A DNA stretch of 64,000 nucleotides from Spirosoma sp. 48-14 (GCF_001898575.1 NZ_MKUD01000010.1:297110-361109); one strand, 5' to 3'; counted from the stretch's first letter, positions 7,219-35,048 are shown. Notes: generated by a model from the letters alone, not told the origin. Made by a program: numbers and translations.

Positions 7219-8710
7219 AGGTGTCGGGCGTGGGGTTTGAATACAGTGTTGAATCGGGGTTAGGACTTGACTCGGAAGCCGGTGTATCCCATCGATAGCA
7301 GGTTGTAAACAGGATCGTCGTCATAAAAATCATGGTGTCGGTCGGGAACTGCCCCATTACAGGATTGGAGTATCCCATTACCGCAATGCCGACAAACTCC
7401 GCCAGGAAAGCATACATTACTTTCACCAGCCAGGGGTCTTTTAGTTGCCAGACTTGATAGACACCGATAAGCACTAAGCCAACAACCATCATCAGGTAGA
7501 TAGTAAGTCCAACCCGGCCGGTTTCGATCCAGAGTTCGACATACCAGCTATCTGGTGGTGTTTGGGCCGCCCAGTGCCAGGGAGAAAACCGTGCCCCCAT
7601 GTCGGTCGATGTGCCAATTCCAGCACCAAATGGATACTCGGCCAGGTATCGTTTGAGCTTTTCCTGATTTTGCAGACGAAGAATAAACGAAGGGTCGTTC
7701 ATGGGTGTCAGCGCGGAACGCATCCGTTGCACCTGATAATTCGAACTGCCAACACTAGTATAGAGCAGAAGCAGCACCAGAGGCACCGCCAGCGTGGCTC
7801 CAATAATCAGCTTGGGAAAATCTCGTTTGAGTAGCAGATAAAATGGAAACCCGGCCAGCATGACGAACAGTGCACTGCGTGTACCCGATACAGCATAGCC
7901 CCAGAAGTAGGTGAGCGCCAACGCCAAACATATCAGTTTGGGTATCAGCTTCTTCTCTTCGAAACTGTAGATCACCGCTACCAGTGTTGCTCCGGCCATT
8001 TCGCCCCCAAACTGAGCAGCATCGGAATAGAACGAAAAGCTACGAAGCTGTCCGAACAATACGTGAGTTAAGGCATTGTTCCCCTGACTAAGCCAGTTTT
8101 GCTCGGCTGGTTCCAGACCAAGATACTGTTGTTTAAAGCCCCAAAAGGCTGCCAGAAACGACCATCCTAGCCACGAATACACCAGAATTTTGATGTCGCG
8201 GATGGTAATGGGCAAAACCAGTACGGCCAGACCTGCCATGAACCAGTGCATCGAAAAAGGCCGGACATGAAAAAACCAGGCCGGACGGTACGGGGCTTCA
8301 GGATTGAGTAATTCAATGAGGGTGTAGGTAAACCAGATGGCAATTAGCGCGAATGTAGGGCTGCGTAAGCGGTGCCAGTCCATTCGCTGGCCGTTTATGA
8401 ATAAACTTAAGAGTGTCAGGGCCAGTACCCCGTCAATTAATAATCCAATAGGAATAGAAACATTAATGAACCGTGACCAGCCAATGAGAAAACTAAGTTG
8501 TAAATACAGAAATAGGCCGAATTTGGGCTCTTTGAACACCATAACAACCGTTAACAAGGCGATTGGTGCAATCAAGGCCATCACTCCGCCAACTGGGCCC
8601 ATCTTACTGATCAGATACCCCACACCAACCGTATATAGCCCGCCCAGGAGGCTATAAAGCCATACTTGGCCAGATGTAGGACTGTTCAGTGAAAATACCG
8701 ACTGCGCCAT
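7205..8710 (-). CDS. Wzy polymerase / O-antigen-ligase-like membrane protein
   Basis: About 11-12 hydrophobic helices, RSFSFYSDA, SGTRSA, PFGAGIG and DSWYVELWIETG motifs; located in the EPS operon. Confidence 0.85.
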   Translation of the reverse strand: MAQSVFSLNSPTSGQVWLYSLLGGLYTVGVGYLISKMGPVGGVMALIAPIALLTVVMVFKEPKFGLFLYLQLSFLIGWSRFINVSIPIGLLIDGVLALTLLSLFINGQRMDWHRLRSPTFALIAIWFTYTLIELLNPEAPYRPAWFFHVRPFSMHWFMAGLAVLVLPITIRDIKILVYSWLGWSFLAAFWGFKQQYLGLEPAEQNWLSQGNNALTHVLFGQLRSFSFYSDAAQFGGEMAGATLVAVIYSFEEKKLIPKLICLALALTYFWGYAVSGTRSALFVMLAGFPFYLLLKRDFPKLIIGATLAVPLVLLLLYTSVGSSNYQVQRMRSALTPMNDPSFILRLQNQEKLKRYLAEYPFGAGIGTSTDMGARFSPWHWAAQTPPDSWYVELWIETGRVGLTIYLMMVVGLVLIGVYQVWQLKDPWLVKVMYAFLAEFVGIAVMGYSNPVMGQFPTDTMIFMTTILFTTCYRWDTPASESSPNPDSTLYSNPTPDTYETV

Positions 8711-20288: not shown

Positions 20289-20489
20289 ATGAACAAACGT
20301 TTTACGTCCGTTTTTACAATACTTTTAGTAGCTGCAAATGGGTTTGCGCAAGTGAAAAATGGTGGAGGAGTCGGGAAGGATACCGGTAAAGAACATTGGT
20401 CGGGTGTCGATTTATACTCAATCCTGATCGGCATAGCGATTGGCTTGATTATTGGCTATTTTCTGGGTAAACGGTCGTCAAAGTCGTAG
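20289..20489 (+). CDS. small membrane protein (signal-like N-terminus, C-terminal TM helix, basic tail)
   Basis: 66 aa: MNKRFTSVFTILLVAANGFAQ...LYSILIGIAIGLIIGYFLGKRSSKS. Confidence 0.6.
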   Translation: MNKRFTSVFTILLVAANGFAQVKNGGGVGKDTGKEHWSGVDLYSILIGIAIGLIIGYFLGKRSSKS

Positions 20490-22835
20490 GTTGTTTACGT
20501 GGTTTATACGTATCAACACAGGAACGGTGTAGGCTTGTCCTTTCATGGAAGGGTCTGAATAGCAAAAGAAGCCCGTTTTCTTCGCTTTATAGACCAACCT
20601 ATTGCGTTGAATCAGTTGACTTGCCTTGTTAAAGACAGTGCCTACCCGTTCGGGAAACGTGCCTGGCTGCGTCTGGAGCTGATGGCGAATTGCGTCGAGG
20701 TTAGTTAGCCTTTCGTTGGAGAAAATAAACAACATGTACTCCGTTCCAGGATCACCGGAAAGGGTAAGCAATGAATCTTTCGTAACATCAATGAGCGTAT
20801 TGGCCGACACAAGTGGAGCGAATGTGCCTGATGGGAAGAGCGTTGTGATGACACTATCGGTTGAATTCGCTGCCAGTGCGTAGAGGTACGATTGAGTGGT
20901 TGTCTTGATCGCGAGTCTTAGCGATGTGCCGGTTGGAAGCGATTTTGCGAGCGTATAGCCTTTGACCGAACGACCGTATTGGGTGGTTGTTGCCGACAAG
21001 GGCGTAGAAGGCGATAAGGCGTGGTAAAGCGATACATCGGCCGACAAAACGACTGCACTAGTGTTGGCGGGTAAGTAGGCCTGATAACCATACTTGGCAA
21101 AGCGGGCAAAATTCTCATAGGTTATCCAGAAGAATCCACCATCTCCCCAGTTCTTGCCCCAACTATTAATTAATTTGAAAGCGCCCTGACCCAGCATGTT
21201 ATCATCATAGCCTACAACACACATGGCATGGCCAAAATCGAGCGTATTCGATAAATCAGGTTTCCATTGGATGGCTGGTGGGGCCGTATCCGACGAAACG
21301 AGCTGCATAACCGAGTTTTGGAGCTTGGTAAAAAAGAGCCGACTAAACGAAAGGTGTCCAATCGAAGGGGTTAATTCCATGCCAATCACCACCGGGGATC
21401 GTTCTGCCAAAGCCTGTTTCGTGGCCAGTACTTTGTCTGCTTTATCATCGGTAATGCTGAACAGCTTCACATAGTCCAGTATTTTTGAATTCGGTTCGGG
21501 TTTATTGGTAGGTACATCAGTGCATGCGTTAACATTTGGGTAACTCGAAAAGCTGGCCAGGCCATATTTTTGGCAAAAGTCGAGGGCGCTCTCGGCAAAA
21601 ATCCCAAATGAGCAATTAACGTCGCCGGCATCCTTTATGAAATTGTAGAGATACGACGGTGAAAAACTGTGTTTCTGTATCGCTGCTTTATCGGTGAGGT
21701 TTAGTTTTATCGCTTCCAGTGTTGAACGCATATAATAGCCAATAGCAACCGCCACACACATCCCTTCCTGACCCTGATTGACAACGGGTGGGGTGTACTT
21801 CGATAAGTCCACGGCCCTTGGAGTTTTTAGCTTGAGAATGGGCTTTTGCTGCAACTGATTGTACCTGTCGTCGTCTACTCGAAACCCCTGCCATTGGGCT
21901 CCTCGTGAACTTGCCCCCGACGGTTGTATAGCCACTGGGTTAGACGATATTTTTTGCTGAGCGCTACACGGATTTATGTCGAGAATCGTGCTCTGGTTGC
22001 TATCTGGTACGTAGATCTCGGTAATGGCCTGTACCCACTGAAACGAAACTGTCGAAAGGTCGGTGGGCCGTGTATTGTCCAGTATGGAAAGGAACGCTTT
22101 GTTGAAAGCATTCGTAAAGAGGGTACCCGCAGCCCCGTTGCCCATATACCTGGATTTTGGAGTCAACGAACTACCGAACTGAACAACCCCGCAATTTTGT
22201 ATAAAAAGCCGTTTGAGGATTTCCCGCTCCAGATTGATAGTATAGATAACCGTACCGGACACTGCTCCTTCTCGCTGAGTAGTTTCAGTCTTGTAATCGG
22301 CCAGAATCAGGCTAAGGTGTGCTTTTTGAGCATTCAGCCATGTTTCCAGTTCACTGACTGCCAGGCCGCGTTCGGTAACGTCGTCCAGTCGCCAGTTGGC
22401 CAGTTTAGCAGGGGCCGACGGACTAATGCCATAGCCTGAAAAATAGACGATGATGATATCCTTCGGGTTCGTTTGGAGAGACAAGACAGTTTCTTTGAGG
22501 GTCTGGCTGGTAAAATGGTCTTTGGGAATCCGCCAGTTCTGGATTTGATAGGATAATCCATTCGCAATTTTGTTGATCACCTGTGCTATCAGGCTGTCGT
22601 TTTCCATATTGACACGGGCAAACTCCAGCTCGTTCTGTTCTTCCACGTAAATGACATGTACGAGGGGCTGACTGACTAACGTTCGGGACGCTGTCGGCTG
22701 TTGCCTGGGCTGCAGATTGGACAGTAGGTCAGTTGAGTTGTTAAGGGCGGGTTTGCTGGGGGGCAGAAAATGGATCTGAGCAAAAACTGCGACCGTACAG
22801 CAGCAAAAGTAGAATACTAACGCAATACGTTTCAT
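20478..22835 (-). CDS. secreted multidomain protein: inactive caspase-like domain + papain-like C1 peptidase + DUF4384-like domain
   Basis: DIIIVYFSGYG / LILADYK (caspase fold, dyad altered); NQGQEGMC, GHAMCVVGYDD, INSWGKNWGDGG (C1 triad); C-terminal LRLAIKTTTQSYLYAL...LFP. Confidence 0.8.
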   Translation of the reverse strand: MKRIALVFYFCCCTVAVFAQIHFLPPSKPALNNSTDLLSNLQPRQQPTASRTLVSQPLVHVIYVEEQNELEFARVNMENDSLIAQVINKIANGLSYQIQNWRIPKDHFTSQTLKETVLSLQTNPKDIIIVYFSGYGISPSAPAKLANWRLDDVTERGLAVSELETWLNAQKAHLSLILADYKTETTQREGAVSGTVIYTINLEREILKRLFIQNCGVVQFGSSLTPKSRYMGNGAAGTLFTNAFNKAFLSILDNTRPTDLSTVSFQWVQAITEIYVPDSNQSTILDINPCSAQQKISSNPVAIQPSGASSRGAQWQGFRVDDDRYNQLQQKPILKLKTPRAVDLSKYTPPVVNQGQEGMCVAVAIGYYMRSTLEAIKLNLTDKAAIQKHSFSPSYLYNFIKDAGDVNCSFGIFAESALDFCQKYGLASFSSYPNVNACTDVPTNKPEPNSKILDYVKLFSITDDKADKVLATKQALAERSPVVIGMELTPSIGHLSFSRLFFTKLQNSVMQLVSSDTAPPAIQWKPDLSNTLDFGHAMCVVGYDDNMLGQGAFKLINSWGKNWGDGGFFWITYENFARFAKYGYQAYLPANTSAVVLSADVSLYHALSPSTPLSATTTQYGRSVKGYTLAKSLPTGTSLRLAIKTTTQSYLYALAANSTDSVITTLFPSGTFAPLVSANTLIDVTKDSLLTLSGDPGTEYMLFIFSNERLTNLDAIRHQLQTQPGTFPERVGTVFNKASQLIQRNRLVYKAKKTGFFCYSDPSMKGQAYTVPVLIRINHVNNLRL

Positions 22836-22931: not shown

Positions 22932-24920
22932 ATGAAGCCTCTTTTCCTGCTCATTGGCTTGTCAATTAGTTCGTGTCCAGCGCTTGCCCAGATAAACCTG
23001 GCCGATAGTCTACAAAACCTGTTGGCCAGGCCCATACCCGATACCAGTAAAGTGTTGGCTCTTGATCGGTTAAGTCGGGCCTGGATGTATGCAAAGCCGT
23101 TTGAAGCCATGCAATGTGCCAGAAAGGGCTTACAGATAGCACAACGTATAGGATATGCCCGAGGGGAGGCCCGTATTCAGAACCGGATTGGTACTATTTT
23201 TCGGCTTACCGGTAATTTCGATCAGGCACTAACTGCTCATCTGACGTCTATAAACATTGCAGAAGCCAATCAGGATAAGGATGCACTGGCTCGAACGTAT
23301 AACAATCTCGGTAACCTTTACATCGAGCAGAACAACTGGACGCAGGCAATTCGCTATTTGCAAAAAGCACTTGCACTGGCTGAAGAGTTGAAAGACAGTG
23401 ATTTAAAGCAAATTGTGCTGACTAACCTGGGGTATGATTACATTTCGCAGAGCCGTTTGGACTCTGCGCTGAAGTATACAACCATAGCGTATCAGGAAGC
23501 CGTAAACCTCAAAACGAGCGATCGACAGGCCGAACTGATGAATCTGGGAAATGTGTATGGCCAGTTAGGTAAATACAAAGAGGCCCTGCAATATTTCCGA
23601 TTCAGTGTCGAAAACGGAAAAACGTCAAAAAATGCCCGTGTATTAAGCCAGACCTATTATGAAATGGCCGATGTCTTTAACAAAATGGGCCAGAAGGACT
23701 CGACTATTTTCTATGCTAACCAATCGTTGACAGTCGCACAGCGGAGCGCATTGCAGCTTAATATCGTCAAAGCCAGTTCATTACTGACCGATATATACGA
23801 GTCAACGGATCCGCGACAGGCAATCGCTTATTTAAAAATTGCTACCGCTGCCAAAGACAGTCTGGTTAACACGGAAAAAATTAAAAACTTTCAGAACATC
23901 GAGTTTAATGAAAAAATGAGGCACGAGGATGAGCAGCGGCTGGAAGAAAAATATCGGACCCGGATTACCATTTACCTGCTCGTAGGGGCCATTGGAACTT
24001 TCATCGCTATTGCGTTTATACTCTACCGTAACAACCGAATCAAGCAAAAAGCCAATGTGATCCTTAAAAAGCAACGGGACGAAATCAGTGTGCAACGGCA
24101 AAAAGCAGAGTTGGCGCTGACCGAGTTGAAAGCTACACAGAATCAACTCATTCAGCGCGAGAAACTGGCCAGCTTAGGCGAACTGACAGCAGGTATAGCC
24201 CATGAAATTCAGAATCCGCTGAATTTTGTTACTAATTTCTCTGAGGTGAGTACAGAGCTTATTGATGAGTTGGGCCAAGGGCCGTTTCAGCAACTCAATG
24301 AAGTCGATAAGCAATACGTAGACGAAATTATAGGTGATTTACGGGTGAACCTCGAAAAAATCAATTACCATGGAAAGCGAGCCGATGCCATTGTTCGGGG
24401 GATGCTGGAACATTCCCGAACGTCGACGGGCGAGAAAGCACCTATTCAGCTGAATAAACTAACCGAAGAACACCTGAATCTGGCTTTTCAGGGGTATAGG
24501 AGCAAAGTCAAAGAGTTTACCTGTCAGCTCGAAAGGGATTTTGGCGATACTGTAGGGGGCATTACGATCGTTGCTCAGGATGTAGGTCGTGTACTATTGA
24601 ACTTGTTTAGCAATGCATTCTATGCCATGAATCAAAAGCGTACCCTTTCTACTGCCGAATACCAACCCGTATTATGGGTGAGTACTCGACGGCAAAATGG
24701 GTACGTTGAAATCCGGGTGAAGGACAATGGCGCGGGTATTCCAGAGGGGATAAAAGCGAAAATCTTTCATCCTTTTTTTACGTCCAAGCCTACAGGAGAA
24801 GGAACCGGACTGGGTTTGAGCCTAAGTTTCGATATAATTACCAAAGGGCATAGCGGTGAACTAACCGTTGATAGCCGGGAGGGAGAAGGGACGGAGTTTA
24901 TCATCAGGCTTCCCGGTTAG
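22932..24920 (+). CDS. TPR-repeat sensor histidine kinase
   Basis: Signal peptide, TPR repeats, one TM, GIAHEIQNPLNF H-box, N-box, DNGAGI, FFTSK, GTGLGLS. Confidence 0.93.
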   Translation: MKPLFLLIGLSISSCPALAQINLADSLQNLLARPIPDTSKVLALDRLSRAWMYAKPFEAMQCARKGLQIAQRIGYARGEARIQNRIGTIFRLTGNFDQALTAHLTSINIAEANQDKDALARTYNNLGNLYIEQNNWTQAIRYLQKALALAEELKDSDLKQIVLTNLGYDYISQSRLDSALKYTTIAYQEAVNLKTSDRQAELMNLGNVYGQLGKYKEALQYFRFSVENGKTSKNARVLSQTYYEMADVFNKMGQKDSTIFYANQSLTVAQRSALQLNIVKASSLLTDIYESTDPRQAIAYLKIATAAKDSLVNTEKIKNFQNIEFNEKMRHEDEQRLEEKYRTRITIYLLVGAIGTFIAIAFILYRNNRIKQKANVILKKQRDEISVQRQKAELALTELKATQNQLIQREKLASLGELTAGIAHEIQNPLNFVTNFSEVSTELIDELGQGPFQQLNEVDKQYVDEIIGDLRVNLEKINYHGKRADAIVRGMLEHSRTSTGEKAPIQLNKLTEEHLNLAFQGYRSKVKEFTCQLERDFGDTVGGITIVAQDVGRVLLNLFSNAFYAMNQKRTLSTAEYQPVLWVSTRRQNGYVEIRVKDNGAGIPEGIKAKIFHPFFTSKPTGEGTGLGLSLSFDIITKGHSGELTVDSREGEGTEFIIRLPG

Positions 24921-24933
24921 ATGGCCACATCAC

Positions 24934-27321
24934 TTAAAACACGACCCGATAGCTAAGAATAGGGATCAGACCACTGCCATAGCTGATTTTAAGTGTACCA
25001 CTGGCTGGGTCATAATAGCGTCCGTAAATGTTCTGTCGGTTTACAGCATTCTGTATGTCGAGTGAAAGGGTGCGTGTCGAATGGGGGCGGTTCTTCTTCC
25101 AGCTTAGCCGAAGGTCGGGCCGAAAATAAGCGGGTAGTTGTTCGGTAAAGGCCTGATTGTCGAAGTAAACCGTTTCGCCAAGCCGTTTCGATTCTGTCAG
25201 ATCGATAGGGGTGTCGCGGTAGCCGCCGTAGTAGCTTAGTTTTAGATTCAGCCCAAAGACATGGGAGCCTGATACCCATTCCTTTCCTGCCAGCAGGCTT
25301 TGGGCAAAACGACCATTCCAGCGTGTGCTGCGCCATACACCATCCGAACCCTGGTATTCCGAGTTATACAGCGATGACGATAGCAGGAAATAATAGCTGT
25401 TGCCGGAGGCTGCTTTAAGTAGAAATTGCTCCAGTGTCAGCTCCAGGCCATAGTTTCGTCCGAGGCCGGTGTTGGTCAGTAGTTGGTCCGTAAAGCCATC
25501 GAATCGGTTGATAATAGCGAATGCATTTTTTTCGGCAGCACTGACCGGAATGTTGACTAGATGCTGGTAGTACGTTTCCAGTTTCAGTCGTAGTGGTGAG
25601 CCGGTATTCCAACTGTTCAGCCGTCGGTCATATGCCAGCACGTACTGATGTGAGCGGGTAAAGCCCAATGCCCGGTTGGAAGCTCCGTTCCCATTTTCCG
25701 ATGGGTCGACTGGACGCATAAAATAAGTGGCTGGGTTCTGAATCTGGCTGTGCAGGCCGTAGCCCAGGCTAACAGATTGATCAGGCGAAAAGGCCCAGCG
25801 GATCGAACCCCGTGGTTCCAGCGCCGAAGAGCCGTTCAGGGCCAACCGGAGATAATGCATGCCAACATTGACAGTGAGTTGTTCCGAAATCCGGTAGTTC
25901 CACTGACCAAACGCCTGTAACGTCTGTGTCTGATCATTGACCTGCACCCGTGTCAGTAATTGGCGTTGTTCGGCTTCCCAGGATTTTTGGTACAGGTTAT
26001 ACAGCAGCTGGGTACCGATCAGCCCAGTCCGAAACGTGTGTTGAGCGTTGAGTTTATAGGTCAGCGTTGACGAGAGAATCCGCTTTTGAATGGTGTAGGC
26101 GGCATCGTTTCGTTCCGAAGCGGCATAGTCGTTGGCTGGTTCCAGAAGTGAGTTTTGGAAACTGTTTTTGTAGCCAGACACCAGGAAAACGGTTTTTAGC
26201 AAGGCCTTTCGCCCGATGGGTAGGGTATGCGTAACCCCGGCTGCCCCTGTATTGGAGCGGAAATCTTCGTTATATCGGTCGTAATCGTTCGCCCACTTTG
26301 ATGAATCGGCAGGGGCGTTGATTTTGCTGCTACTCAATCCACCAAAACCGAACAGGGTAAACGTTCCAGCCGTTCGGGTTGGCAGGTAGACATTGAACGA
26401 CAAATCCTGAAACACCCTGTCGCCAGTACCGATGTTAACGCCCAGTTTGGATAGCAAACCGAGAGTGGAATAGCGATAATTGACCAGAAATGAACCGTTG
26501 TACCCTTTCGCTATGGGGCCTTCGGCAGCCAGATCAATGCCCAGCAGTCCGGCTTGCAGCGTGTATTCGCGTTTGGTGCTATTTCCCCGGCGTAGGCGCA
26601 GATCAAATACGCCCGAAAGCGCATTGCCGTATTCGGCCGGAAAAGCGCCGGTCAGAAAATCCGAATTGGCCAGTAACTGGGCGCTGAGGATGGAAATGCC
26701 TCCACCAGCCGTACCCAGGTTGGAAAAATGATTCGGGTTTGGTATCTCGACACCTTCCATGCGCCATAGTAGCCCGTTTGGTGTATTGCCCCGGATAATG
26801 ATGTAATTACCGCCATCGTCGGCACCGACCACACCCGCGTAGGCTGTTGCCATACGGGCCGGGTCATTGACAGCAGCTGCAAATTTCTGCGTTTCTTCCA
26901 CCGAAAACGTTCGGGCCGATACGGTAGCCATTTCGTTGATCGGTTTGTCTTTTTCAGTGGTTGGTTTGACCGTTATTTCACCCAGTTGACTAACCGCTTC
27001 TTCGAGGGAAATACTCAGAACCAGTTCTTTCCCGGCGTCGACGACAATGTTTTGGAGGGTCGCCACCTTGTAGCCAACAACACTGATTTGCAGGCTCTGA
27101 CGACCGACCGGAACCTGTGTAAGCTGAAACTGACCTGTGGCATCGGTACTGGTTCCTTTAATGGGCGACGAATTGAGGATAATCACCGAAGCGCCGGGTA
27201 GAGGTGTTTGTAAACTTTGATCCACGACCGTACCCCGGATGGTCTGTGTTAATGATTGAGCCTGTAGAGAAAGCGAAAGCAGAAAAACGGCTAAAAACGT
27301 GAATGGTGAGCGGAGTTGCAT
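24934..27321 (-). CDS. TonB-dependent receptor with N-terminal CarboxypepD_reg-like domain (no STN domain)
   Basis: Signal peptide, IRGTVVD...LPGASV, plug motif IIRGN...EGVEIPNPNHF, AEYGNALSGVFDL, C-terminal SYRVVF. Confidence 0.92.
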   Translation of the reverse strand: MQLRSPFTFLAVFLLSLSLQAQSLTQTIRGTVVDQSLQTPLPGASVIILNSSPIKGTSTDATGQFQLTQVPVGRQSLQISVVGYKVATLQNIVVDAGKELVLSISLEEAVSQLGEITVKPTTEKDKPINEMATVSARTFSVEETQKFAAAVNDPARMATAYAGVVGADDGGNYIIIRGNTPNGLLWRMEGVEIPNPNHFSNLGTAGGGISILSAQLLANSDFLTGAFPAEYGNALSGVFDLRLRRGNSTKREYTLQAGLLGIDLAAEGPIAKGYNGSFLVNYRYSTLGLLSKLGVNIGTGDRVFQDLSFNVYLPTRTAGTFTLFGFGGLSSSKINAPADSSKWANDYDRYNEDFRSNTGAAGVTHTLPIGRKALLKTVFLVSGYKNSFQNSLLEPANDYAASERNDAAYTIQKRILSSTLTYKLNAQHTFRTGLIGTQLLYNLYQKSWEAEQRQLLTRVQVNDQTQTLQAFGQWNYRISEQLTVNVGMHYLRLALNGSSALEPRGSIRWAFSPDQSVSLGYGLHSQIQNPATYFMRPVDPSENGNGASNRALGFTRSHQYVLAYDRRLNSWNTGSPLRLKLETYYQHLVNIPVSAAEKNAFAIINRFDGFTDQLLTNTGLGRNYGLELTLEQFLLKAASGNSYYFLLSSSLYNSEYQGSDGVWRSTRWNGRFAQSLLAGKEWVSGSHVFGLNLKLSYYGGYRDTPIDLTESKRLGETVYFDNQAFTEQLPAYFRPDLRLSWKKNRPHSTRTLSLDIQNAVNRQNIYGRYYDPASGTLKISYGSGLIPILSYRVVF

Positions 27322-27351
27322 GATGGAACAGAAAACGATGATTCGCTTTCC

Positions 27352-27378
27352 TGACAGCCGACGTCAACAAGACCCCTA
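27352..27378 (-). promoter_or_regulatory. putative ECF-sigma promoter, copy 1 (TonB receptor)
   Basis: Minus strand TAGGGGT-cttgttgacgtcgg-CTGTCA, 30 nt before ATG 27321. Confidence 0.8.
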
Positions 27379-27597
27379 TGACCACTCGTCAAAAAGTTTC
27401 AGATTGCAGGCTATCGCCAACCGGGTCAGTTATGTAAAAACGAACTTCAGTGGAGATAACAGCTAGTAAGCAATCGGTAGACGTTGTATTAATCCTAGCA
27501 GAATAGATTAGTTTTTCGTGTAAATTAAATGGGATGGAAAACTGACACTAAACTTGGCATGAAAATAGTGATTAGGGACTTCTAAAATGCCGCGTTT

Positions 27598-28599
27598 ATG
27601 AAACGGTTACCCACCGCCTACTTGCTCTTTTTTGCTCTTGTGATGCCGATCTGGCTGGTTTACATGGTTACTCAAAACGGTTTTTCGTTTTATAACGACC
27701 ACTGGGCCGCGCCCATAACCATGTTTTTTGGATCATTTGTCGCTGGAGCGACATCGGAAGGGGGAGGAGCAGTAGCCTTCCCGGTGTTTACGCTGCTGCT
27801 CAAACTACCCCCGCCCGTAGCCCGCAACTTTTCATTTGCCATACAGAGTATTGGGATGACATCTGCCAGTCTGTTGATTATCAGCCTGAAAATTCCGGTC
27901 GACTGGCGGGCTATTCGTACGGTAGCCATTGGCGGTATTCCAGGGCTGTTGTTTGGCGCTTTCTTCATTGTACCGCTGATTAGCGGCCAAATGACAAAGA
28001 TTTTCTTTGTGTCGCTATGGCTAAGCTTTGCGTTTGCCCTGTATCTGGCGAACCGCAAAACAGATCGGGTTACGACCAGGGGATTAGGCCCGTTGAAGGC
28101 AGTCGATCTAGCCCGCATTCTGGTATTTGCGTTCATTGGCGGTATCATCACGGCCATTTTTGGTGATGGGATCAATATTTTCACCTTTTGCCTGTTTACC
28201 CTCTACTATTCAACCAGTGAGAAAATCGCTACCCCTACATCCATCATAATCATGACCATCCATACCATCATTGGCTTTTTGCTGCATGTGTTCGTATTGC
28301 AGGATTTTCAGCCGATGACTTTTCAGTATTGGATGTGTGCGATTCCGGTAGCGATTCTGATGGCACCGCTGGGTGCCTACATTATTAATTTTCTGACGCG
28401 GGAAGCCATCGCTAAATTCCTGTACATCACCACTGTGGTTCAATATATCGGTGCATTGATCGCCCTGCGTCCTCCAACGGTTGTGGTGTTGATCAGCTTC
28501 GGTACGGTTGTAGGTGGGTTTTTGTTTTTCTGGTGGCTATCAACGCTTCGGTCTGAGCAGTCGGCTAAACCCTCGTCTTATGCCTCGTTGAATTCCTAA
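27598..28599 (+). CDS. TauE/SafE (TSUP) family membrane transporter
   Basis: GSFVAGATSEGGGAVAFPVFT...NFSFAIQSIGMTSA; second repeat GGIITAIFGDG; about 9 TM helices. Confidence 0.85.
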   Translation: MKRLPTAYLLFFALVMPIWLVYMVTQNGFSFYNDHWAAPITMFFGSFVAGATSEGGGAVAFPVFTLLLKLPPPVARNFSFAIQSIGMTSASLLIISLKIPVDWRAIRTVAIGGIPGLLFGAFFIVPLISGQMTKIFFVSLWLSFAFALYLANRKTDRVTTRGLGPLKAVDLARILVFAFIGGIITAIFGDGINIFTFCLFTLYYSTSEKIATPTSIIIMTIHTIIGFLLHVFVLQDFQPMTFQYWMCAIPVAILMAPLGAYIINFLTREAIAKFLYITTVVQYIGALIALRPPTVVVLISFGTVVGGFLFFWWLSTLRSEQSAKPSSYASLNS

Positions 28600-28610
28600 A
28601 CGCCCTCATT

Positions 28611-29123
28611 ATGCAAACCGCTATTCGTTGGGCGTTATACATTCTGGGGATTGAAATTCTGTTTCTAGTCGCTTTAGCGGTGCACCATTTCTCATTGGTT
28701 CCCCCGCTGGCGGCTAGTTGTATGCTGTTGGCAGCCAATCCCAAGGGCGTTTTTGCACAGCCTCGTACGGTTTTGGTTGCTTATATACTGGTGGGACATC
28801 TGGGTTTATTCCACTACGTATTTCTGGGAAATAATCTATTCGGATTGATGGCCATGACAATACTGGCAGTTAGCCTGATGGCTGCCGTTTCATCGATTCA
28901 TCCACCTGCCATAGCGCTGTTATTTCTACTGGCGAAAGCCGCCCATCCGTTTCAGGAGTATTTGTTCATGGTTTTGTTTGTAGTGGCGATGGTCGGGTTT
29001 CACTATGCCGCTCAGTGGTGGCTAAGTCAACTATATCCATCTGTTCAAGCCAATCCAAGGGTCATAACGGAATCGAAGCCGACTGCTTATTCAACCTACC
29101 TGGCCACCGCCGAAAATCAATGA
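28611..29123 (+). CDS. HPP-family membrane protein
   Basis: VPPLAAS...AQPR...SIHPPAIA motifs, 4-5 TM helices. Confidence 0.8.
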   Translation: MQTAIRWALYILGIEILFLVALAVHHFSLVPPLAASCMLLAANPKGVFAQPRTVLVAYILVGHLGLFHYVFLGNNLFGLMAMTILAVSLMAAVSSIHPPAIALLFLLAKAAHPFQEYLFMVLFVVAMVGFHYAAQWWLSQLYPSVQANPRVITESKPTAYSTYLATAENQ

Positions 29124-29267
29124 TCAGCGGCAACCGTACTGGACTACGCTTATCCTGCCCCAGGCTACATATCCTGCTGGTGTTACCCTTTTTGTCAGTG
29201 TGATGGAGGGGTTATGACGGAAACTATGTCTATCGTGCTTTTGCAGAAAAATTATTTTTACATGGCG

Positions 29268-29294
29268 TAGGGGTCGACCGGCTACTAACTGTCA
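29268..29294 (+). promoter_or_regulatory. putative ECF-sigma promoter, copy 2 (autoregulatory)
   Basis: TAGGGGT-cgaccggctactaa-CTGTCA, 30 nt before ATG 29325. Confidence 0.82.
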
Positions 29295-29324
29295 TAGGGA
29301 GGAACAACCGGATGTTTGCCGAAA

Positions 29325-30038
29325 ATGATAGCTTTGCAGTCTCCTGTCATTTATTATACTACACCAGTGCCACCAACCGAACAGGATGTCATTACGGCTA
29401 TCCGGGCGGGTAGCGAACGCGACTTTGAAGCTGTTTTCAGGCAGTATTATGCGTCGCTATGCCGGTATGCCCGTCAGTTACTCCCCGATCCTGACGAAGC
29501 AGAAGAGGAAGTACAGGCTATGTTCCTGGCTATTTGGGAAAAACGCCAAGGACTGCTTATTAGTGTATCGCTCAAGTCGTACCTGTATCGATCGGTTCAT
29601 AATCGTTGCCTGAACCGACTCAAGCACGCATCCGTTCGCGATGAGCACCGGGACTATATCCAGCATATTGGGGAAGAGACGGCTGAATCGCCTGCTCAGC
29701 GGGTAATTGGTGAGGAATTGGCTCACCAGATTCAACGGGCAATTCAGAAATTACCCGAACAGTGCCGACTCGTGTTTACGCTAAGTCGGTACGAAGAGCT
29801 TCGGTACGGGGAAATTGCAGAGCAATTAGGGATATCAATTAAAACCGTTGAGAATCAGATTGGCAAAGCCCTACGTATCTTACGGGCAGAATTGAGTGAG
29901 TATTTACCCGTTGTTCTGGCGCTTGGAATGAATAATGGACAGTGGATGCTGAATCCTGGTAGCGAATTGAGCGAAGCGGATATAGTATCTATACTAACCA
30001 TGTTTCATTCTTCATTGTCAATTCTTCATTTTATCTAA
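29325..30038 (+). CDS. ECF RNA polymerase sigma-70 factor (Bacteroidota FecI-like) with extended C-tail
   Basis: FEAVFRQYY...AEEEVQAMFLAIWEKR...YLYRSVHNRCLN; region 4 LPEQCRLVFTLSRYEELRYGEIAEQLGISIKTVENQI. Start at ATG 29325 preferred over TTG 29316. Confidence 0.95.
   Translation: MIALQSPVIYYTTPVPPTEQDVITAIRAGSERDFEAVFRQYYASLCRYARQLLPDPDEAEEEVQAMFLAIWEKRQGLLISVSLKSYLYRSVHNRCLNRLKHASVRDEHRDYIQHIGEETAESPAQRVIGEELAHQIQRAIQKLPEQCRLVFTLSRYEELRYGEIAEQLGISIKTVENQIGKALRILRAELSEYLPVVLALGMNNGQWMLNPGSELSEADIVSILTMFHSSLSILHFI
29926..30035. repeat. AATGAA(T/G)-type heptamer inverted repeat read in frame within the sigma gene 3' end
   Basis: Left arm gaatgaataatggacagtgga, right arm tcattcttcattgtcaattcttcatt; pairs with G-U wobbles. 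Confidence 0.65.
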
Positions 30039-30041
30039 GCC

Positions 30042-31136
30042 ATGGCCGATCAACATCCTATTGACGATGCCCTATTGGGCAAGTTTCTGGCCGGTGAAAC
30101 GGATCCGGCTGAATCGGCGCGGGTACGGCAATGGCTTTTGAGTCGCAATGCAGGTATATCCGAACCTACGCACGACGATTTTGCCAAGTTTGAACGCATC
30201 TGGAATGCGGCTAAGCAAGGGCAGCGTGCATCGAAGAAAGGCAAAACATCGACAGACCTCGAGCAACCCGATGTGGATACCGACGCGGCCTGGAAATCGG
30301 TTCAACAGCGTATGAGGAGCATTGATGGGCGAGCCGAAAATGGGGCGGCTATCAAGCCGCTGCCCAGTCAGGTAACAGAGCCGGATAGCCTTTGGCGGCA
30401 GACTGGCTACCGGGTGGCGGCAGTGTTGGCATTGGTGGTGAGCCTGGGCTGGCTGGTTTATCAGTTTCGGTACATGGGTCACGACAATCCGGCTATTCAT
30501 ACGGTTACGCTGGTCACGGGCGACCGACAACTTCGAAAAACCCTGCCCGATGGTTCACGCATTGTGCTGAATCGACACTCCACACTGACTTATCCGGCCG
30601 CTTTTGCTGACGAACGACGCGATGTGACCCTGAATGGTGAAGCGTTTTTTGATGTAACCCCCGACCCAAATCGACCGTTCCGTATCCAGGCCCGGCCAAC
30701 CGTTGTGCAGGTGCTGGGTACATCGTTTACTGTTCGGGCTTATGATAACAATGTCAGTGTAGCCGTTCAAACGGGTAAAGTGCGGTTTTCGAGCGGCCGC
30801 AAAGCCGTCTTGCTGACAAAAGATCAACAGGCCACGTTTGACGAGCAGACCGATACCATTCGTCGGGCAGCGCAGCTAGCGCCTAACGCCTTTGCTTACA
30901 AGACTGGCTTGCTGGTGTTTGACAATGAGCCATTGGCCAGTGTAATACAGACCATTAACCAGTTCTATAATTCGGATGTGCAACTAGCTAATGCCCGGCT
31001 GGATAATTGTCGGTTGAAAACCCGTTTCGATAAAATGTCGCTGGATGAAGTGGTGGCTGTAACGGCCGAAACCCTTGGTTTACAGGTTCGCCACGAAGGG
31101 AAATCAATAATTTTAGACGGTGCCGGATGCCGATGA
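30042..31136 (+). CDS. FecR-family anti-sigma factor
   Basis: LLGKFLAGE...VRQWL, AAW, single TM, LPDGSRIVLN, LNGEAFFDV, VQVLGTSF, LVFDNEPL motifs. Confidence 0.94.
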   Translation: MADQHPIDDALLGKFLAGETDPAESARVRQWLLSRNAGISEPTHDDFAKFERIWNAAKQGQRASKKGKTSTDLEQPDVDTDAAWKSVQQRMRSIDGRAENGAAIKPLPSQVTEPDSLWRQTGYRVAAVLALVVSLGWLVYQFRYMGHDNPAIHTVTLVTGDRQLRKTLPDGSRIVLNRHSTLTYPAAFADERRDVTLNGEAFFDVTPDPNRPFRIQARPTVVQVLGTSFTVRAYDNNVSVAVQTGKVRFSSGRKAVLLTKDQQATFDEQTDTIRRAAQLAPNAFAYKTGLLVFDNEPLASVIQTINQFYNSDVQLANARLDNCRLKTRFDKMSLDEVVAVTAETLGLQVRHEGKSIILDGAGCR

Positions 31137-31137
31137 A

Positions 31138-31163
31138 TAGGGGTAAGCGACCAGATGGCTGTC
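31138..31163 (+). promoter_or_regulatory. putative ECF-sigma promoter, copy 3 (STN protein)
   Basis: TAGGGGT-aagcgaccagatgg-CTGTC(T), directly after the fecR stop and about 28 nt before ATG 31193. Confidence 0.75.
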
Positions 31164-31192
31164 TTGTCGTAAAACCACTGTTAGTAAATCCA

Positions 31193-33034
31193 ATGCGTTA
31201 TTTTCTCCTTTGCTTCTTTATTAGCCTCCGCCTGTCGGCTCAGTCGATACCTCCACTGGATCGGGTCATTTCGGTGGATATTCGCAATGCAACGCTCGAC
31301 AATGCTCTTCGTCAGATCAGCCGGGCTGGCCGGTTTGAGTTCTCGTACGACCCCACCCGTATCGATGGAACTACAACGATCACGCTGCGATTAACGAACA
31401 CACCCGTTCGGGAAGTGCTGAGCCGGGTATTTGTGAACCGGGTTGCGTTTAAATCCCGCGGGAACCACGTCATTCTGGTCCGTGCCGATCCGCCTGAGTC
31501 GACCCCGAAGAGTTTTCTGCTGGATGGCTATATTCTGGATGAGCAAACCGGCGAACGGATTGCCAAAGCCAGTATTTTCGAAAAAACCACGCTGGCATCT
31601 ACGGTCAGCAATCCCTTTGGGTATTATAAACTACAGCTACCGACGAGTCTGGCCAATGCGCGGCTGGACGTTCGTAAACAGGATTACCTGGGCGAAACGG
31701 TGCTGATCCGATCCCGGACTTCGCACGCGGTTAACATCCGCATGACCCCTTTGCCTCCTACTACCTCATCGTCGATCCAAACCTTACCAATTCGTGTGAT
31801 TGAGGATACGGTGCGCTCCGTTGAGCCACCCTTAGCTTCCGTAGCGGTCGAAGCACCTGCGCCAATGGTCGATTCAACGGCCCGCCAACCGCAGTCCGTT
31901 GTTGATAAAGGGTGGTCTGGAATTTCGAAGTTTTTTGTTTCGGCGCAACAGGCCATTCACGACATAAACCTGAGCCGTGATACGCTTTACCGGGACTGGC
32001 AGGTGTCGTTTGTTCCGTTTTTTGGCACCAACGGGCGTTTGAGCGGACGTATCAGCAACCGTTTTTCGGTCAACATGCTCATGGGCTATTCGTTTGGGGT
32101 TCGGGCGTTTGAGGTTGGAGGCTTGATGAACCTGGTTCGAACCGATGTCGATGGATTTCAGACCGCTGGTTTAGCCAATATCGTTGGTGGTCATGTCGCT
32201 GGGGTTCAGGCAGGTGGGCTTATCAACTATACGAATCACTATGTAAAAGGTGCCCAACTCGGTGGTCTGGTCAATACAGCCGGACGTTCGGTAACGGGAG
32301 CGCAGGTGGCCGGGTTGATCAACTATGCCAATCAGGAAGTTCAGGGTGCTCAGATTGCCGGATTGATTAATGTGGCTGGACGTTCGGTTAATGGTGTGCA
32401 ACTGGCTGGCATACTCAACGTAGCCCGTGGCGATGTGCGTGGTGCACAGATCAGTGGTATTGTGAACGTAGCTCGCCGGGTGACAAACGGCCCTCAGATT
32501 GGGTTGATCAATCTGGCCGATACAGCAGGCAGCGTACCTGTTGGTCTCCTGAGTTTTGTCCGAAAAGGAGGCTACAAACGTGTCGAACTAGCGGCTAATG
32601 AGGTCAATCTGTTGAATGTAACCTTACGAACGGGTGTGCAGCGATTATACAATATCCTGACCGCCGGGCACAGTTTCGATCGGATAGGTAGCCCCCGACT
32701 TAGTGCCGGTTATGGTTTAGGAACGGCCTTCCGACTGTCGAAAGCCACCTTATTCAACCTCGAACTCATCGATCAGCATTTGTTCTATTTCGACGGAACG
32801 TATCCACGCGGCTGGAACAACCAGATTCGCCTGAATACCCTGATTGAAGCCCGGTTGAGTAACCATATCGCACTAGCATTCGGGCCGTCGGCCAACTGGT
32901 ATTTCAGTACCGACGATCGGCCAATCCCGCTGTTGCAACCCGAAATCCTATTGGTTTCTAACCGGGCCGATGCATACAGTAATGCGCGTCACTGGGGGTG
33001 GCTTGGCCTTCAGGCTGGTTTACGGTTCTTTTAA
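31193..33034 (+). CDS. outer-membrane protein: STN + CarboxypepD_reg-like domain + about 8 x 16-aa GxQxxGxxN repeats + C-terminal beta-barrel-like domain
   Basis: ISVDIRNATLDNALRQIS...FEFSY (STN); LDGYILDEQTGERIAKASI; repeats such as GAQIAGLINVAGRSV; amphipathic strands ending GLQAGLRFF. Confidence 0.82.
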   Translation: MRYFLLCFFISLRLSAQSIPPLDRVISVDIRNATLDNALRQISRAGRFEFSYDPTRIDGTTTITLRLTNTPVREVLSRVFVNRVAFKSRGNHVILVRADPPESTPKSFLLDGYILDEQTGERIAKASIFEKTTLASTVSNPFGYYKLQLPTSLANARLDVRKQDYLGETVLIRSRTSHAVNIRMTPLPPTTSSSIQTLPIRVIEDTVRSVEPPLASVAVEAPAPMVDSTARQPQSVVDKGWSGISKFFVSAQQAIHDINLSRDTLYRDWQVSFVPFFGTNGRLSGRISNRFSVNMLMGYSFGVRAFEVGGLMNLVRTDVDGFQTAGLANIVGGHVAGVQAGGLINYTNHYVKGAQLGGLVNTAGRSVTGAQVAGLINYANQEVQGAQIAGLINVAGRSVNGVQLAGILNVARGDVRGAQISGIVNVARRVTNGPQIGLINLADTAGSVPVGLLSFVRKGGYKRVELAANEVNLLNVTLRTGVQRLYNILTAGHSFDRIGSPRLSAGYGLGTAFRLSKATLFNLELIDQHLFYFDGTYPRGWNNQIRLNTLIEARLSNHIALAFGPSANWYFSTDDRPIPLLQPEILLVSNRADAYSNARHWGWLGLQAGLRFF

Positions 33035-33119
33035 CTGCACTATAGGGGAAGAAACAATCCCGCCAGTAGCCATAATAGGAGAGGAGCTTGGTGTGAGGCA
33101 AATTTTTTTTGTCGGCGCG

Positions 33120-33146
33120 TAGGGGTAGAGGTATGTACGGCTGTCA
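33120..33146 (+). promoter_or_regulatory. putative ECF-sigma promoter, copy 4 (GIN lipoprotein)
   Basis: TAGGGGT-agaggtatgtacgg-CTGTCA, 65 nt before ATG 33212. Confidence 0.8.
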
Positions 33147-33211
33147 TGATGTCAAATGAGCTATGAATACAACCTGAATAGCTCCGAAATCTGTAAAACG
33201 ACAAGTAGATT

Positions 33212-33928
33212 ATGACAAGCACAAAATTCCTGGGCATTTCGCTCGTTGCCATCGCGCTTACTTTATCCGGCTGCTCCTTAATTCGGGAGGATGTAGGGCC
33301 TTACCAGATGGCTCAGCAAAGCTATGCACTCACCAATTTCGACCGACTGGATATGGGAAGTGCTTTTGTTATTACGGTTCAGCAGGGAACCTCTTATAGC
33401 ATTTCGGTGGAAGGCGACCGACGAAATCTGGATGACCTGGAGGTGTATACGCGAAATGGTACACTCAAAGCGCAGTACCGCGTAGCCCGGAACCGCCAGT
33501 ACGCTACCACGTTCCGAATTACGATGCCCAGTCTGCGCGGAGTAGATTTTTCGGGTGCGGTTCGATCAACGGTAACGGGTTTTACGAATCTGGATGGTTT
33601 CGACGTTACGTTGTCGGGCGCTTCTGAAGGCCAGTTTGATATACAGGCGGCCCGACCAACGATCAATCTATCCGGCGCTTCGGTATTGCGGATGACTGGC
33701 AAAGGGGCGTTCCTGACAGCCGATTTGTCCGGTGCTTCGAGCTTACAGGCGTTCGACTATCTCGTCGATAATGCGGGTCTGGAACTGTCGGGAGCCAGTA
33801 AAGCGAACGTTAGTGTAAACAGCAGTCTGGTAGTCGAGGCCAGTGGGGCCAGCGCCGTTCGTTATCGCGGCAAACCTGCTGTTGCTCAACGAGTAAGTGG
33901 AGCCAGTACGGTACAGAACGAATTGTAG
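33212..33928 (+). CDS. head GIN domain (DUF2807) lipoprotein
   Basis: Lipobox LSGC; repeated SGAS/SGAV units; ends VRYRGKP...VSGASTV. Confidence 0.88.
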   Translation: MTSTKFLGISLVAIALTLSGCSLIREDVGPYQMAQQSYALTNFDRLDMGSAFVITVQQGTSYSISVEGDRRNLDDLEVYTRNGTLKAQYRVARNRQYATTFRITMPSLRGVDFSGAVRSTVTGFTNLDGFDVTLSGASEGQFDIQAARPTINLSGASVLRMTGKGAFLTADLSGASSLQAFDYLVDNAGLELSGASKANVSVNSSLVVEASGASAVRYRGKPAVAQRVSGASTVQNEL

Positions 33929-33939
33929 TTTTATACGTC

Positions 33940-34010
33940 ACTCTTATCTCTAAAAATCCCGAAGGGGACTCAGATCCTGAGTCCCCTTCGGGATTTTTAG
34001 AGATAAGAGT
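33940..34010. repeat. perfect 34-bp inverted repeat with 3-nt loop between convergent genes (bidirectional terminator / REPIN-like)
   Basis: actcttatctctaaaaatcccgaaggggactcag-atc-ctgagtccccttcgggatttttagagataagagt. Confidence 0.9.
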
Positions 34011-34016
34011 ATGTTA

Positions 34017-35048
34017 TTATGGCTTCGGACTAGCAGCCGCTGTACTATCCGCTTTTTGTTTCGCTTCGGCTTTGGCTTTCTTCTTGAAGAAGCCACGCAA
34101 CAGGAAGTTACTCTGTGCAGCTTTCAGGTCTTCATTCAGTAGCTCCGTTCCTTTACTTAAGTTACGAAGCGTGACCTGTAGATTGGTTGCTGTTTCCTTG
34201 TCGGTCAGCAGGATACCAAGCGGGCTGTTGGTATTGTTCAGCTTATCCGATGCCCGGTTCAGGTTGATCGATGTTTGCCGTAAAGTAGCCACGCTTTGAT
34301 CGGCAGCAGTTACAGTCGATTCGAATCGGGTGGCGGCCCGGCTCAGGCGTCGAAATACCGTTGTATCGGTTACTAATTCGTTCGCCAGCGTTCCTTTCGT
34401 ATTCAGTTTGGCGGCAAACTGCGCCACTGAACCCGTCACCCGAACGGTATTGTCGGACGCTTTTTCCAGATTGACCATAGCCCGTTTGAAATTGTCGGCA
34501 ACGATCGAGTCGGTCAGAACTGCCCCTACGGTGCCTTTCCCACGTCTTAAATTGCCAACCAGTTCTTTAAAGTCATTGGTCACTTTCAGGAGGTTATTGT
34601 TGTTTTCCTGTAAAGTTGCCATGATTTGATCCGAACTTAATGCCTCGGTGGTTTTCAGTCGGTCACCATCTTCAACTTCGGGCTGGCTTGTGGTCCCGCC
34701 GGCAATCACAACGATTTTATTCCCGATCAGGCCATCGGAACTAATGGAGGCTGAAGCATCTTTCCGAATGAATTGCTTGGAGCTTTCCTCAATATTCATG
34801 TCAACTTCTACCTGTGAGTTGCTCACGAAGCTAATGCGCTTAACCGTACCGATTTTAACACCGGAAAACCAGACGTTGTTGCCGTTCTTCAAGCCACCAA
34901 CGTCTTTAAAGAGCGCAATAAGGCGAACAGTACTGGTGAAGCGCTTTTGCTGGCCACCCAGTACGAATATTCCCGCGATCAGGATAATAATGCCCAGTAG
35001 GACGAATATGCCTACGACCACGGAGCGTTTTGTCGATTCAGTACTCAT
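34017..35048 (-). CDS. mlaD: MlaD/MCE-family protein
   Basis: VVVGIFVLLG TM, FKDVGGLKNGNNVWFSGVKIGTV, ISSDGLIGNKIV, helical tail. Start at ATG 35048. Confidence 0.92.
   Translation of the reverse strand: MSTESTKRSVVVGIFVLLGIIILIAGIFVLGGQQKRFTSTVRLIALFKDVGGLKNGNNVWFSGVKIGTVKRISFVSNSQVEVDMNIEESSKQFIRKDASASISSDGLIGNKIVVIAGGTTSQPEVEDGDRLKTTEALSSDQIMATLQENNNNLLKVTNDFKELVGNLRRGKGTVGAVLTDSIVADNFKRAMVNLEKASDNTVRVTGSVAQFAAKLNTKGTLANELVTDTTVFRRLSRAATRFESTVTAADQSVATLRQTSINLNRASDKLNNTNSPLGILLTDKETATNLQVTLRNLSKGTELLNEDLKAAQSNFLLRGFFKKKAKAEAKQKADSTAAASPKP

Follow-up and report, generated by a model that had tools for sequence, protein, structure and literature searches.

A conserved ECF-type promoter motif and the predicted autoregulated outer-membrane regulon of a FecR-paired sigma factor in Spirosoma sp. 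48-14

The sigma-fecR locus and its four motif copies

We analyzed a stretch of 64,000 nucleotides (nt) from Spirosoma sp. 48-14 (GCF_001898575.1, NZ_MKUD01000010.1:297110-361109), referred to as the window, in which a gene for an extracytoplasmic function (ECF) sigma factor lies among several copies of a bipartite motif, TAGGGGT-N14-CTGTC. The sigma gene (29367..30038, plus strand) is followed on the same strand by genes for a FecR-type transmembrane anti-sigma factor (30042..31136), an STN-solenoid protein of 613 amino acids (aa) predicted to reside in the outer membrane (31193..33034), and a DUF2807 (GIN-domain) lipoprotein (33212..33928). A TonB-dependent receptor of 795 aa is encoded on the minus strand (24934..27321), and a TauE-family gene (27598-28599) and an HPP-family gene (28611-29123) lie between it and the sigma gene. 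An earlier note made from the DNA sequence alone had named the products of the four genes preceded by the motif as a TonB receptor, a sigma factor, an STN-solenoid protein and a GIN lipoprotein, and Pfam agrees with all of these identities.

Exact matches to the motif were found at four places in the window: 27353..27378 on the minus strand before the receptor gene, and, on the plus strand, 29268..29293 before sigma-fecR, 31138..31163 before the STN-solenoid gene (an internal site that begins 2 nt past the fecR stop codon), and 33120..33145 before the DUF2807 gene. The earlier note had reported the same four copies with a 14-nt spacer and no further full copy in the window; its positions hold, while three of its end coordinates are one base off. 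None of 100 dinucleotide-preserving shuffles contained a match. A position weight matrix trained on 70 unique orthologous sites upstream of sigma genes, applied to the window with a threshold of 13 bits, returned these four sites alone, with scores of 14.0 (27353), 25.1 (29268), 28.4 (31138) and 23.5 bits (33120); the top score over 20 shuffles was 12.3 bits. Allowing up to two mismatches added three weak matches, and the resulting total of seven against 3.4 expected is at chance level. The four 14-nt spacers show no sequence relationship to one another, so the sites do not stem from the copying of a repeat. Because the flanks differ as well, we rejected an origin from a repeat or mobile element. 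An origin of the four copies by chance or as leftovers of a repeated mobile element has a negligible probability, given the empty shuffles, the unrelated spacers and flanks, and the position-specific conservation in more than 150 loci of many genera described below, and we regard this explanation as already refuted. The Rfam scan found no family overlapping any of the sites, its lone weak match being ssnA (E = 0.27) inside fecR. A scan for sigma-70 promoters and terminators, the model of which is ill-suited to Bacteroidota, gave nothing useful.

Counted from the last C of CTGTC, the start codon lies 31 nt away for the receptor (ATG 27321), 29 nt for the STN-solenoid gene (ATG 31193) and 66 nt for the DUF2807 gene (ATG 33212). 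For the sigma gene the distance is 31 nt to ATG 29325 and 73 nt to the more likely start, GTG 29367. A spacing of 28-30 nt from the ATG, which had been proposed for three of the copies, is thus about right (31, 29 and 31 nt), with the sigma value applying only if ATG 29325 is used. Between the motif and the sigma start, exactly one TAnnTTTG box occurs in 71 of the 76 orthologous loci that carry the motif at this position, compared with a background of 0.0005 per nt. We take TAnnTTTG to be the -7 box consensus of the Bacteroidota housekeeping sigma factor; the copy in the window is TAGCTTTG (29329..29336, plus strand), which probably represents a second, basal housekeeping promoter for sigma-fecR, located downstream of the inducible ECF promoter. 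A -7/-33 architecture characterizes the promoters of Bacteroidota (PMC13472631). Because the box falls in a conserved stretch, ATG 29325 is probably not the start codon; this ATG lies within that stretch, is absent outside Spirosoma, and was rejected. Alignments of the sigma factor with proteins from other genera start only near residue 15 of the reading from ATG 29325, which corresponds to GTG 29367, and this GTG is accordingly the likely start. A further candidate, TTG 29316, is disfavoured by the position of the box.

The sigma factor matches Sigma70_r2, Sigma70_r4_2 and Sigma70_ECF in Pfam and has sigma-70 regions 2 and 4 only, which places it among the ECF (group 4) factors. It scores 179.1 bits with TIGR02985, the Bacteroidota-type profile Sig70_bacteroi1 (cut-off 126.4), and 91.7 bits with TIGR02937 (cut-off 42.9). 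Its C-terminal tail (~29900-30038), about 35-45 aa past region 4, aligns within Spirosoma alone, and matches from other genera stop at about residue 200. The product of the adjacent gene contains the FecR (PF04773, E = 4e-19) and FecR_C (PF16344, E = 2e-11) domains, with a hydrophobic stretch at ~residues 125-145 read from the sequence and the C-terminal domain at ~residues 291-358, and thereby forms a FecR-type pair with the sigma factor.

The STN-solenoid protein carries a signal peptide and the Pfam domains STN and CarbopepD_reg_2. Its AlphaFold2 model (mean predicted local distance difference test score 85.7) comprises an STN domain (residues 25-97), a transthyretin-like domain (107-184), a disordered linker (193-232), two helices (236-259), a beta-solenoid (265-445) and a set of antiparallel strands (453-612). 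These C-terminal strands resemble a small barrel, and the sequence ends in ...GLRFF. A Foldseek search with the model returned transthyretin domains and, weakly, small barrels of 8-10 strands (NspA, Opa60, OmpA), and nothing else. Pfam, the model and Foldseek revealed no TonB-receptor plug or large barrel in this protein, and we predict that it is anchored in the outer membrane. At least 1190 homologues exist, named by NCBI as 'STN and carboxypeptidase regulatory-like domain-containing protein'; the NCBI records give no function for the family, and literature searches for either the STN-plus-carboxypeptidase-regulatory family or DUF2807 gave no paper relevant to this context. The DUF2807 assignment of the lipoprotein is strong (PF10988, E = 5e-29), and a lipobox, LSGC, was read from its sequence.

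In the receptor, Pfam detects CarboxypepD_reg at the N-terminus and, weakly and short of the curated cut-off, Plug; STN is absent. Its orthologues are named TonB-dependent receptor, and some of them match PF00593 and PF07715, the Pfam models for the barrel and the plug. Comparison with solved structures, using either the single sequence or a 16-sequence profile, gave matches confined to the N-terminal transthyretin-like domain.

Conservation of the motif and its association with four gene families

A search with the sigma protein yielded 80 loci from Spirosoma, Larkinella, Fibrisoma, Nibrella, Siphonobacter, Arsenicibacter, Dyadobacter, Arcicella, Flectobacillus and Pseudarcicella, and all specificity counts refer to the window plus these 80 loci (1.02 Mb, both strands). 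A co-oriented TAGGGG(T/G)-N15-TGTC site is present upstream of the sigma gene in 76 of the 81 loci, from at least 10 genera, and the GGGG-N16-TGTC spacing of these sites is fixed from Spirosoma to Arcicella. In Spirosoma panaciterrae DSM 21099, the sigma factor of which is 88% identical, all four sites occur in the exact form. The check in relatives that the earlier note had suggested thus bears out that the motif is kept upstream of sigma orthologues.

At the 13-bit threshold, the matrix identified 163 sites in these loci, among which 158 are co-oriented with, and no more than 330 nt upstream of, a member of four gene families. Expressed as loci with a site over loci with the gene, the counts are 76/81 for sigma, 32/76 for the STN-solenoid gene, 36/42 for the DUF2807 gene and 14/16 for the receptor gene. 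The sites of the last three families had been left out of the matrix training, so that their enrichment is not circular. No site was found upstream of FecR, TauE, HPP, histidine kinase or MlaD genes in the same data; fecR itself adjoins sigma in 80 of the 81 loci and is never preceded by a motif of its own. The copies are therefore tied to gene starts rather than scattered, as had been anticipated.

The arrangement of the sites varies among genera. The internal promoter of the STN-solenoid gene is present in Spirosoma, Larkinella, Fibrisoma, Nibrella and Arsenicibacter and absent in Dyadobacter and Arcicella. Since no internal promoter precedes the Dyadobacter STN-solenoid gene, this gene probably shares a transcript with sigma-fecR. 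The Dyadobacter DUF2807 gene points away from sigma and has a minus-strand site in front of it; at loci L034-L079 (~5815-5905), two motif copies stand back to back about 20 nt apart, one for DUF2807 and one for sigma. At three Siphonobacter loci (L028, L029 and L037), no STN-solenoid homologue was detected downstream of fecR. The same loci have a strong minus-strand site with a GGTC variant of the -10 element near the FecR end (~8330-8460), and in L029, the sole one of the three examined, this site precedes a DUF4833 gene (7692-8255, minus strand). GGTC also replaces TGTC in some Spirosoma lineages (L099, L114, L089, L102 and L103), and S. sordidisoli and S. lacussanchae have GGTC at both sites of the locus together with a TGGGGG -35 element. 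This variation within Spirosoma may reflect drift in the specificity of one factor that is shared by the sites within a genome.

The position of the receptor gene varies as well. In several other Spirosoma species it is divergent from sigma and directly adjoins it; in Larkinella, Fibrisoma and Nibrella it lies on the same strand downstream of the STN-solenoid gene; and in S. profusum, S. soli and Arsenicibacter rosenii it is located off the contig of the sigma gene. A co-oriented site precedes it in each of these arrangements. The proposal that the divergent receptor belongs to the system is thereby supported, as the motif stays with the receptor gene in rearranged loci and where the gene is on a separate contig. 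Genes of the TauE and HPP families lie between the receptor and sigma promoters solely in the window and in S. panaciterrae (locus L001). Because they lack a site and are found just in these two loci, they appear to be a lineage-specific insertion into the divergent promoter region and stand outside the regulon.

Orthologues of the receptor at 50-55% identity occur in Flavobacteriales, Fluviicola, Cyclobacteriaceae, Chryseotalea and many uncultured Bacteroidia. Among 78 testable receptor loci, a co-oriented site lies within 250 nt upstream in 48 and at 250-1400 nt upstream in a further 17. On a Fluviicola contig, the site stands between the STN-solenoid gene and the DUF2807 gene, which is followed by the receptor gene, and an order of this type would explain the more distant sites. 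We also carried out an unbiased scan of all genomes with the 16-base query ATAGGGGTAA-N13-TGTCAT, which gave at least 120 loci. Among the matches listed, 65 of 80 first record titles are Bacteroidota, and 61 of 122 occurrences are followed, in the same orientation, by a gene homologous to one of the five in the module (sigma, fecR, STN-solenoid, DUF2807 and receptor). Judging from these sequence matches, the module and its motif extend across the phylum Bacteroidota, well past the family Spirosomataceae, and the description of the regulon as local, given in the earlier note, does not hold.

In other Bacteroidota, motif copies were also seen before small outer-membrane beta-barrel-like proteins (loci L178, L179, L254, L204, L232, L255 and L200). 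Pfam was applied to five of these proteins; L178 alone matched OMP_b-brl_2, and L204 gave weak PagL and OmpW matches. Two Chryseolinea genomes have the motif before a gene for an FAD-dependent monooxygenase (L165 and L198).

Predicted promoter anatomy and the probable reader of the motif

A profile was built from 228 unique sites, with flanks that had not been used in scoring and with positions counted from the T of TAGGGG. Its core reads (C/A)(A/G)TAGGGG(T/G)AA ... (A/G)G(T/C)TGTC(A/T)T. At the base preceding TGTC, T (54% of all sites) is commoner than C (23%), so that the leading C of CTGTC, which had been counted as a fixed base, does not belong to the consensus, TAGGGG(T/G)-N15-TGTC. Upstream, an A-run at -20 to -14 (47-71% A) is followed by a T-run at -13 to -10. 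An A/T-rich stretch likewise precedes the sigma-upstream motif in nearly all loci. In the window, the tract is clear at the sigma site (29248-29258) and just upstream of the DUF2807 site and weaker at the receptor and STN-solenoid sites; the A/T tract that had been assigned to every copy accordingly holds at the family level. Downstream, position +34, which is 9 nt past the C of TGTC, is A in 78%, G in 20% and C in 0% of sites, with more A after it.

From its conservation, this purine is the likely transcription start. The predicted starts in the window are 27344 G on the minus strand and 29302 G, 31172 A and 33154 A on the plus strand, each a purine 9 nt after TGTC; the leaders would then measure 23 nt (receptor), 21 nt (STN-solenoid gene), 58 nt (DUF2807 gene) and 65 nt (sigma, to GTG 29367). 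Relative to such a start, the -35 element would be TAGGGG(T/G)A at about -34 to -27 and the -10 element TGTC at about -12 to -9, and the A-then-T tract would resemble an UP element. Canonical ECF promoters have a -35 element of the GGAAC type, a spacer of about 16-17 nt and a -10 element of the CGTC/GTC type. The sites described here are similar in being bipartite with rigid spacing, in the GTC of the -10 element, in their location upstream of the sigma factor's own gene and in their short predicted leaders; they differ from the canonical consensus in that the -35 element TAGGGG(T/G)A contains no AAC.

Alternatively, the motif could be the operator of a conventional DNA-binding repressor or activator rather than a promoter. 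We consider this very improbable, because the motif is bipartite and non-palindromic, has rigid spacing around an unconserved spacer and is always oriented with the downstream gene; in addition, a purine fixed 9 nt downstream and an A/T tract upstream form the geometry of a promoter, and the loci contain no conserved candidate regulator besides sigma and FecR.

Our preferred explanation, to which we give a probability of roughly 85%, is that RNA polymerase with the local ECF sigma factor (encoded at about 29367-30038) recognizes all four motifs as promoters, so that the genes behind them would form an autoregulated outer-membrane regulon. Every in silico prediction made from the earlier proposal that the motif is the sigma factor's own promoter came out as expected, including the conserved upstream position. 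Autoregulation is common among ECF sigma factors and is the standard basis for the prediction of ECF promoters (PMC7826278). The data establish the motif, how specific and conserved it is, and its association with these genes; the start positions and the choice of this sigma factor, rather than a paralogue, as the reader of the motif are inferred.

Several observations weigh against this explanation. The receptor site has the weakest score in the window, 14 bits, and for 13 of the 78 receptor orthologues the matrix gave no site that reached the threshold. A G-run in the -35 element departs from the common GGAAC type, and the assignment of elements therefore rests on geometry and the conserved purine. 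Candidate RNA sequencing runs that contain the window (X9, X11, X12 and X13) show flat coverage of ~3-10x over genes and intergenic DNA alike, which is DNA-like and hence uninformative on transcription starts. Metatranscriptome contigs on the Dyadobacter fermentans locus are of read length, with a depth of 2-8 and no 5' ends; if they derive from RNA, they are compatible with low-level transcription. Some Bacteroidota matches of the unbiased scan precede genes for small outer-membrane barrels, DUF4833 proteins or FAD monooxygenases, and such off-module matches could mean either a larger regulon in some lineages or related sigma factors that share the motif. Finally, these genomes contain many ECF/FecR pairs, so that a paralogue could read the same motif.

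The last two points raise the question of whether the promoters are read by one or more paralogous FecI-like sigma factors encoded elsewhere, with the local sigma factor a target and not the reader. Bacteroidota have on average about 22 ECF sigma factors per genome (PMC7826278), and the occurrence of the motif before off-module genes in other Bacteroidota would fit such a situation. It is nevertheless unlikely in our estimation: at 76 of the 81 loci the motif accompanies the orthologue of this particular sigma factor and takes the position typical of autoregulation, the remaining targets are conserved neighbours of the same sigma factor, and no second ECF sigma factor is encoded in the 64-kb window. 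In a full-text literature search, no relevant paper linking TAGGGGT with a sigma factor was found.

A possible split signalling system and its known relatives

In our reading, the adjacent FecR-type protein would hold the sigma factor inactive at the inner membrane, and the periplasmic STN domain of the solenoid protein would contact the C-terminal domain of FecR. An inducing signal might then lead to release of the sigma factor. Once released, it would raise the expression of its own operon, a positive autoregulation on top of the basal housekeeping promoter, and would also turn on its three outer-membrane targets, which encode the STN-solenoid protein, the lipoprotein with DUF2807 and the TonB-dependent receptor without STN. 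That FecR holds the sigma factor and that the sigma factor drives the promoters is proposed because of the families involved. Transducers reportedly can protect an anti-sigma factor from proteolysis (PMC11637429), so that the STN protein, as a product induced by the sigma factor, could just as well exert negative feedback.

The closest general model is the FecI/FecR/FecA system of E. coli, together with the siderophore systems of Pseudomonas. As in those systems, an ECF sigma factor is encoded beside a transmembrane FecR with a periplasmic C-terminal domain, an STN-domain protein is located (here by prediction) in the outer membrane, and a TonB-dependent receptor is among the targets. Unlike in those systems, STN is carried by a separate solenoid protein and the regulated receptor has none; the sigma operon has a promoter motif of its own, and is for this reason considered autoregulated, and the -35 element is the G-run TAGGGGT. 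A classical TonB-dependent transducer has STN fused N-terminally to the plug and 22-strand barrel of the transporter. With STN on a separate 613-aa protein and a receptor that lacks it, neither product falls under this definition.

Similarity is also evident to the ECF/anti-sigma/SusC-like systems of polysaccharide utilization loci in Bacteroidota (originally ECF10; ECF239 and ECF240 in PMC7826278), which share the phylum, TIGR02985 and the FecR plus FecR_C domains. The sigma factor agrees with the description of the ECF239/ECF240 clade in that survey. In contrast to these systems, the locus has no SusC/SusD pair or carbohydrate-active enzymes nearby, its receptor is a 795-aa protein without STN, and the third gene codes for a non-transporting STN protein. 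A scan of ten genes at and near the locus gave no SusD-like gene, and the locus accordingly does not qualify as a SusC/SusD locus.

The nearest precedent for an STN 'receptor' without a 22-strand barrel is VreA of the PUMA3 VreA/VreI/VreR system in P. aeruginosa (PMC2729926). VreA is a 23-kDa protein with a TolA/TonB-like C-terminal domain, whereas the STN-solenoid protein is 613 aa long, with a predicted anchorage in the outer membrane; the two have no sequence relationship past STN, and the phylum and the target genes differ. A broader possibility is that the module represents a phylum-wide 'split' form of cell-surface signalling, in which STN has moved from the transporter onto a non-transporting outer-membrane protein that, instead of the receptor, talks to FecR, either as a sensor or as a feedback component that shields FecR from proteolysis. 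On this view, the system would answer to some envelope or nutrient cue as yet undescribed in Bacteroidota. We offer this idea tentatively and regard it as possible rather than probable.

In a 2021 survey, no member of ECF240, the main FecI-like group of Bacteroidota, had been studied experimentally, while more than 20 ECF sigma factors are present per genome (PMC7826278). For an unstudied ECF sigma factor that is conserved across several orders of Bacteroidota, the present analysis offers a precise candidate promoter, TAGGGG(T/G)-N15-TGTC, together with predicted start sites and a regulon of four units. It also points to the very common STN/carboxypeptidase-regulatory family as a likely periplasmic partner of FecR-type anti-sigma factors, apart from any transporter; this partnership, if true, would broaden the model of cell-surface signalling. 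Three features stand out from the routine: how widely the system is conserved, the G-run in the -35 element, and the placing of STN on a protein other than the transporter; the remaining features are as expected of an ECF sigma factor.

Beyond the receptor gene in the window, a gene for a histidine kinase with TPR repeats (22932-24920) adjoins the receptor gene and is convergent with it; among the loci compared, a histidine kinase beside the module was seen in the window and in S. panaciterrae alone. Farther out, a 785-aa protein (20478-22835, minus strand) contains a papain-like C1 peptidase region and DUF4384. In sequencing runs X1-X13, window positions 24500-34500 recur at near-identity, among them bioreactor and wastewater metagenomes. 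Other runs of this set carry the label of a single organism, for which very large Hi-C libraries also exist, and cover the window at a low and uniform depth; this pattern suggests that the bacterium is an associate or a contaminant of samples of a eukaryotic host.

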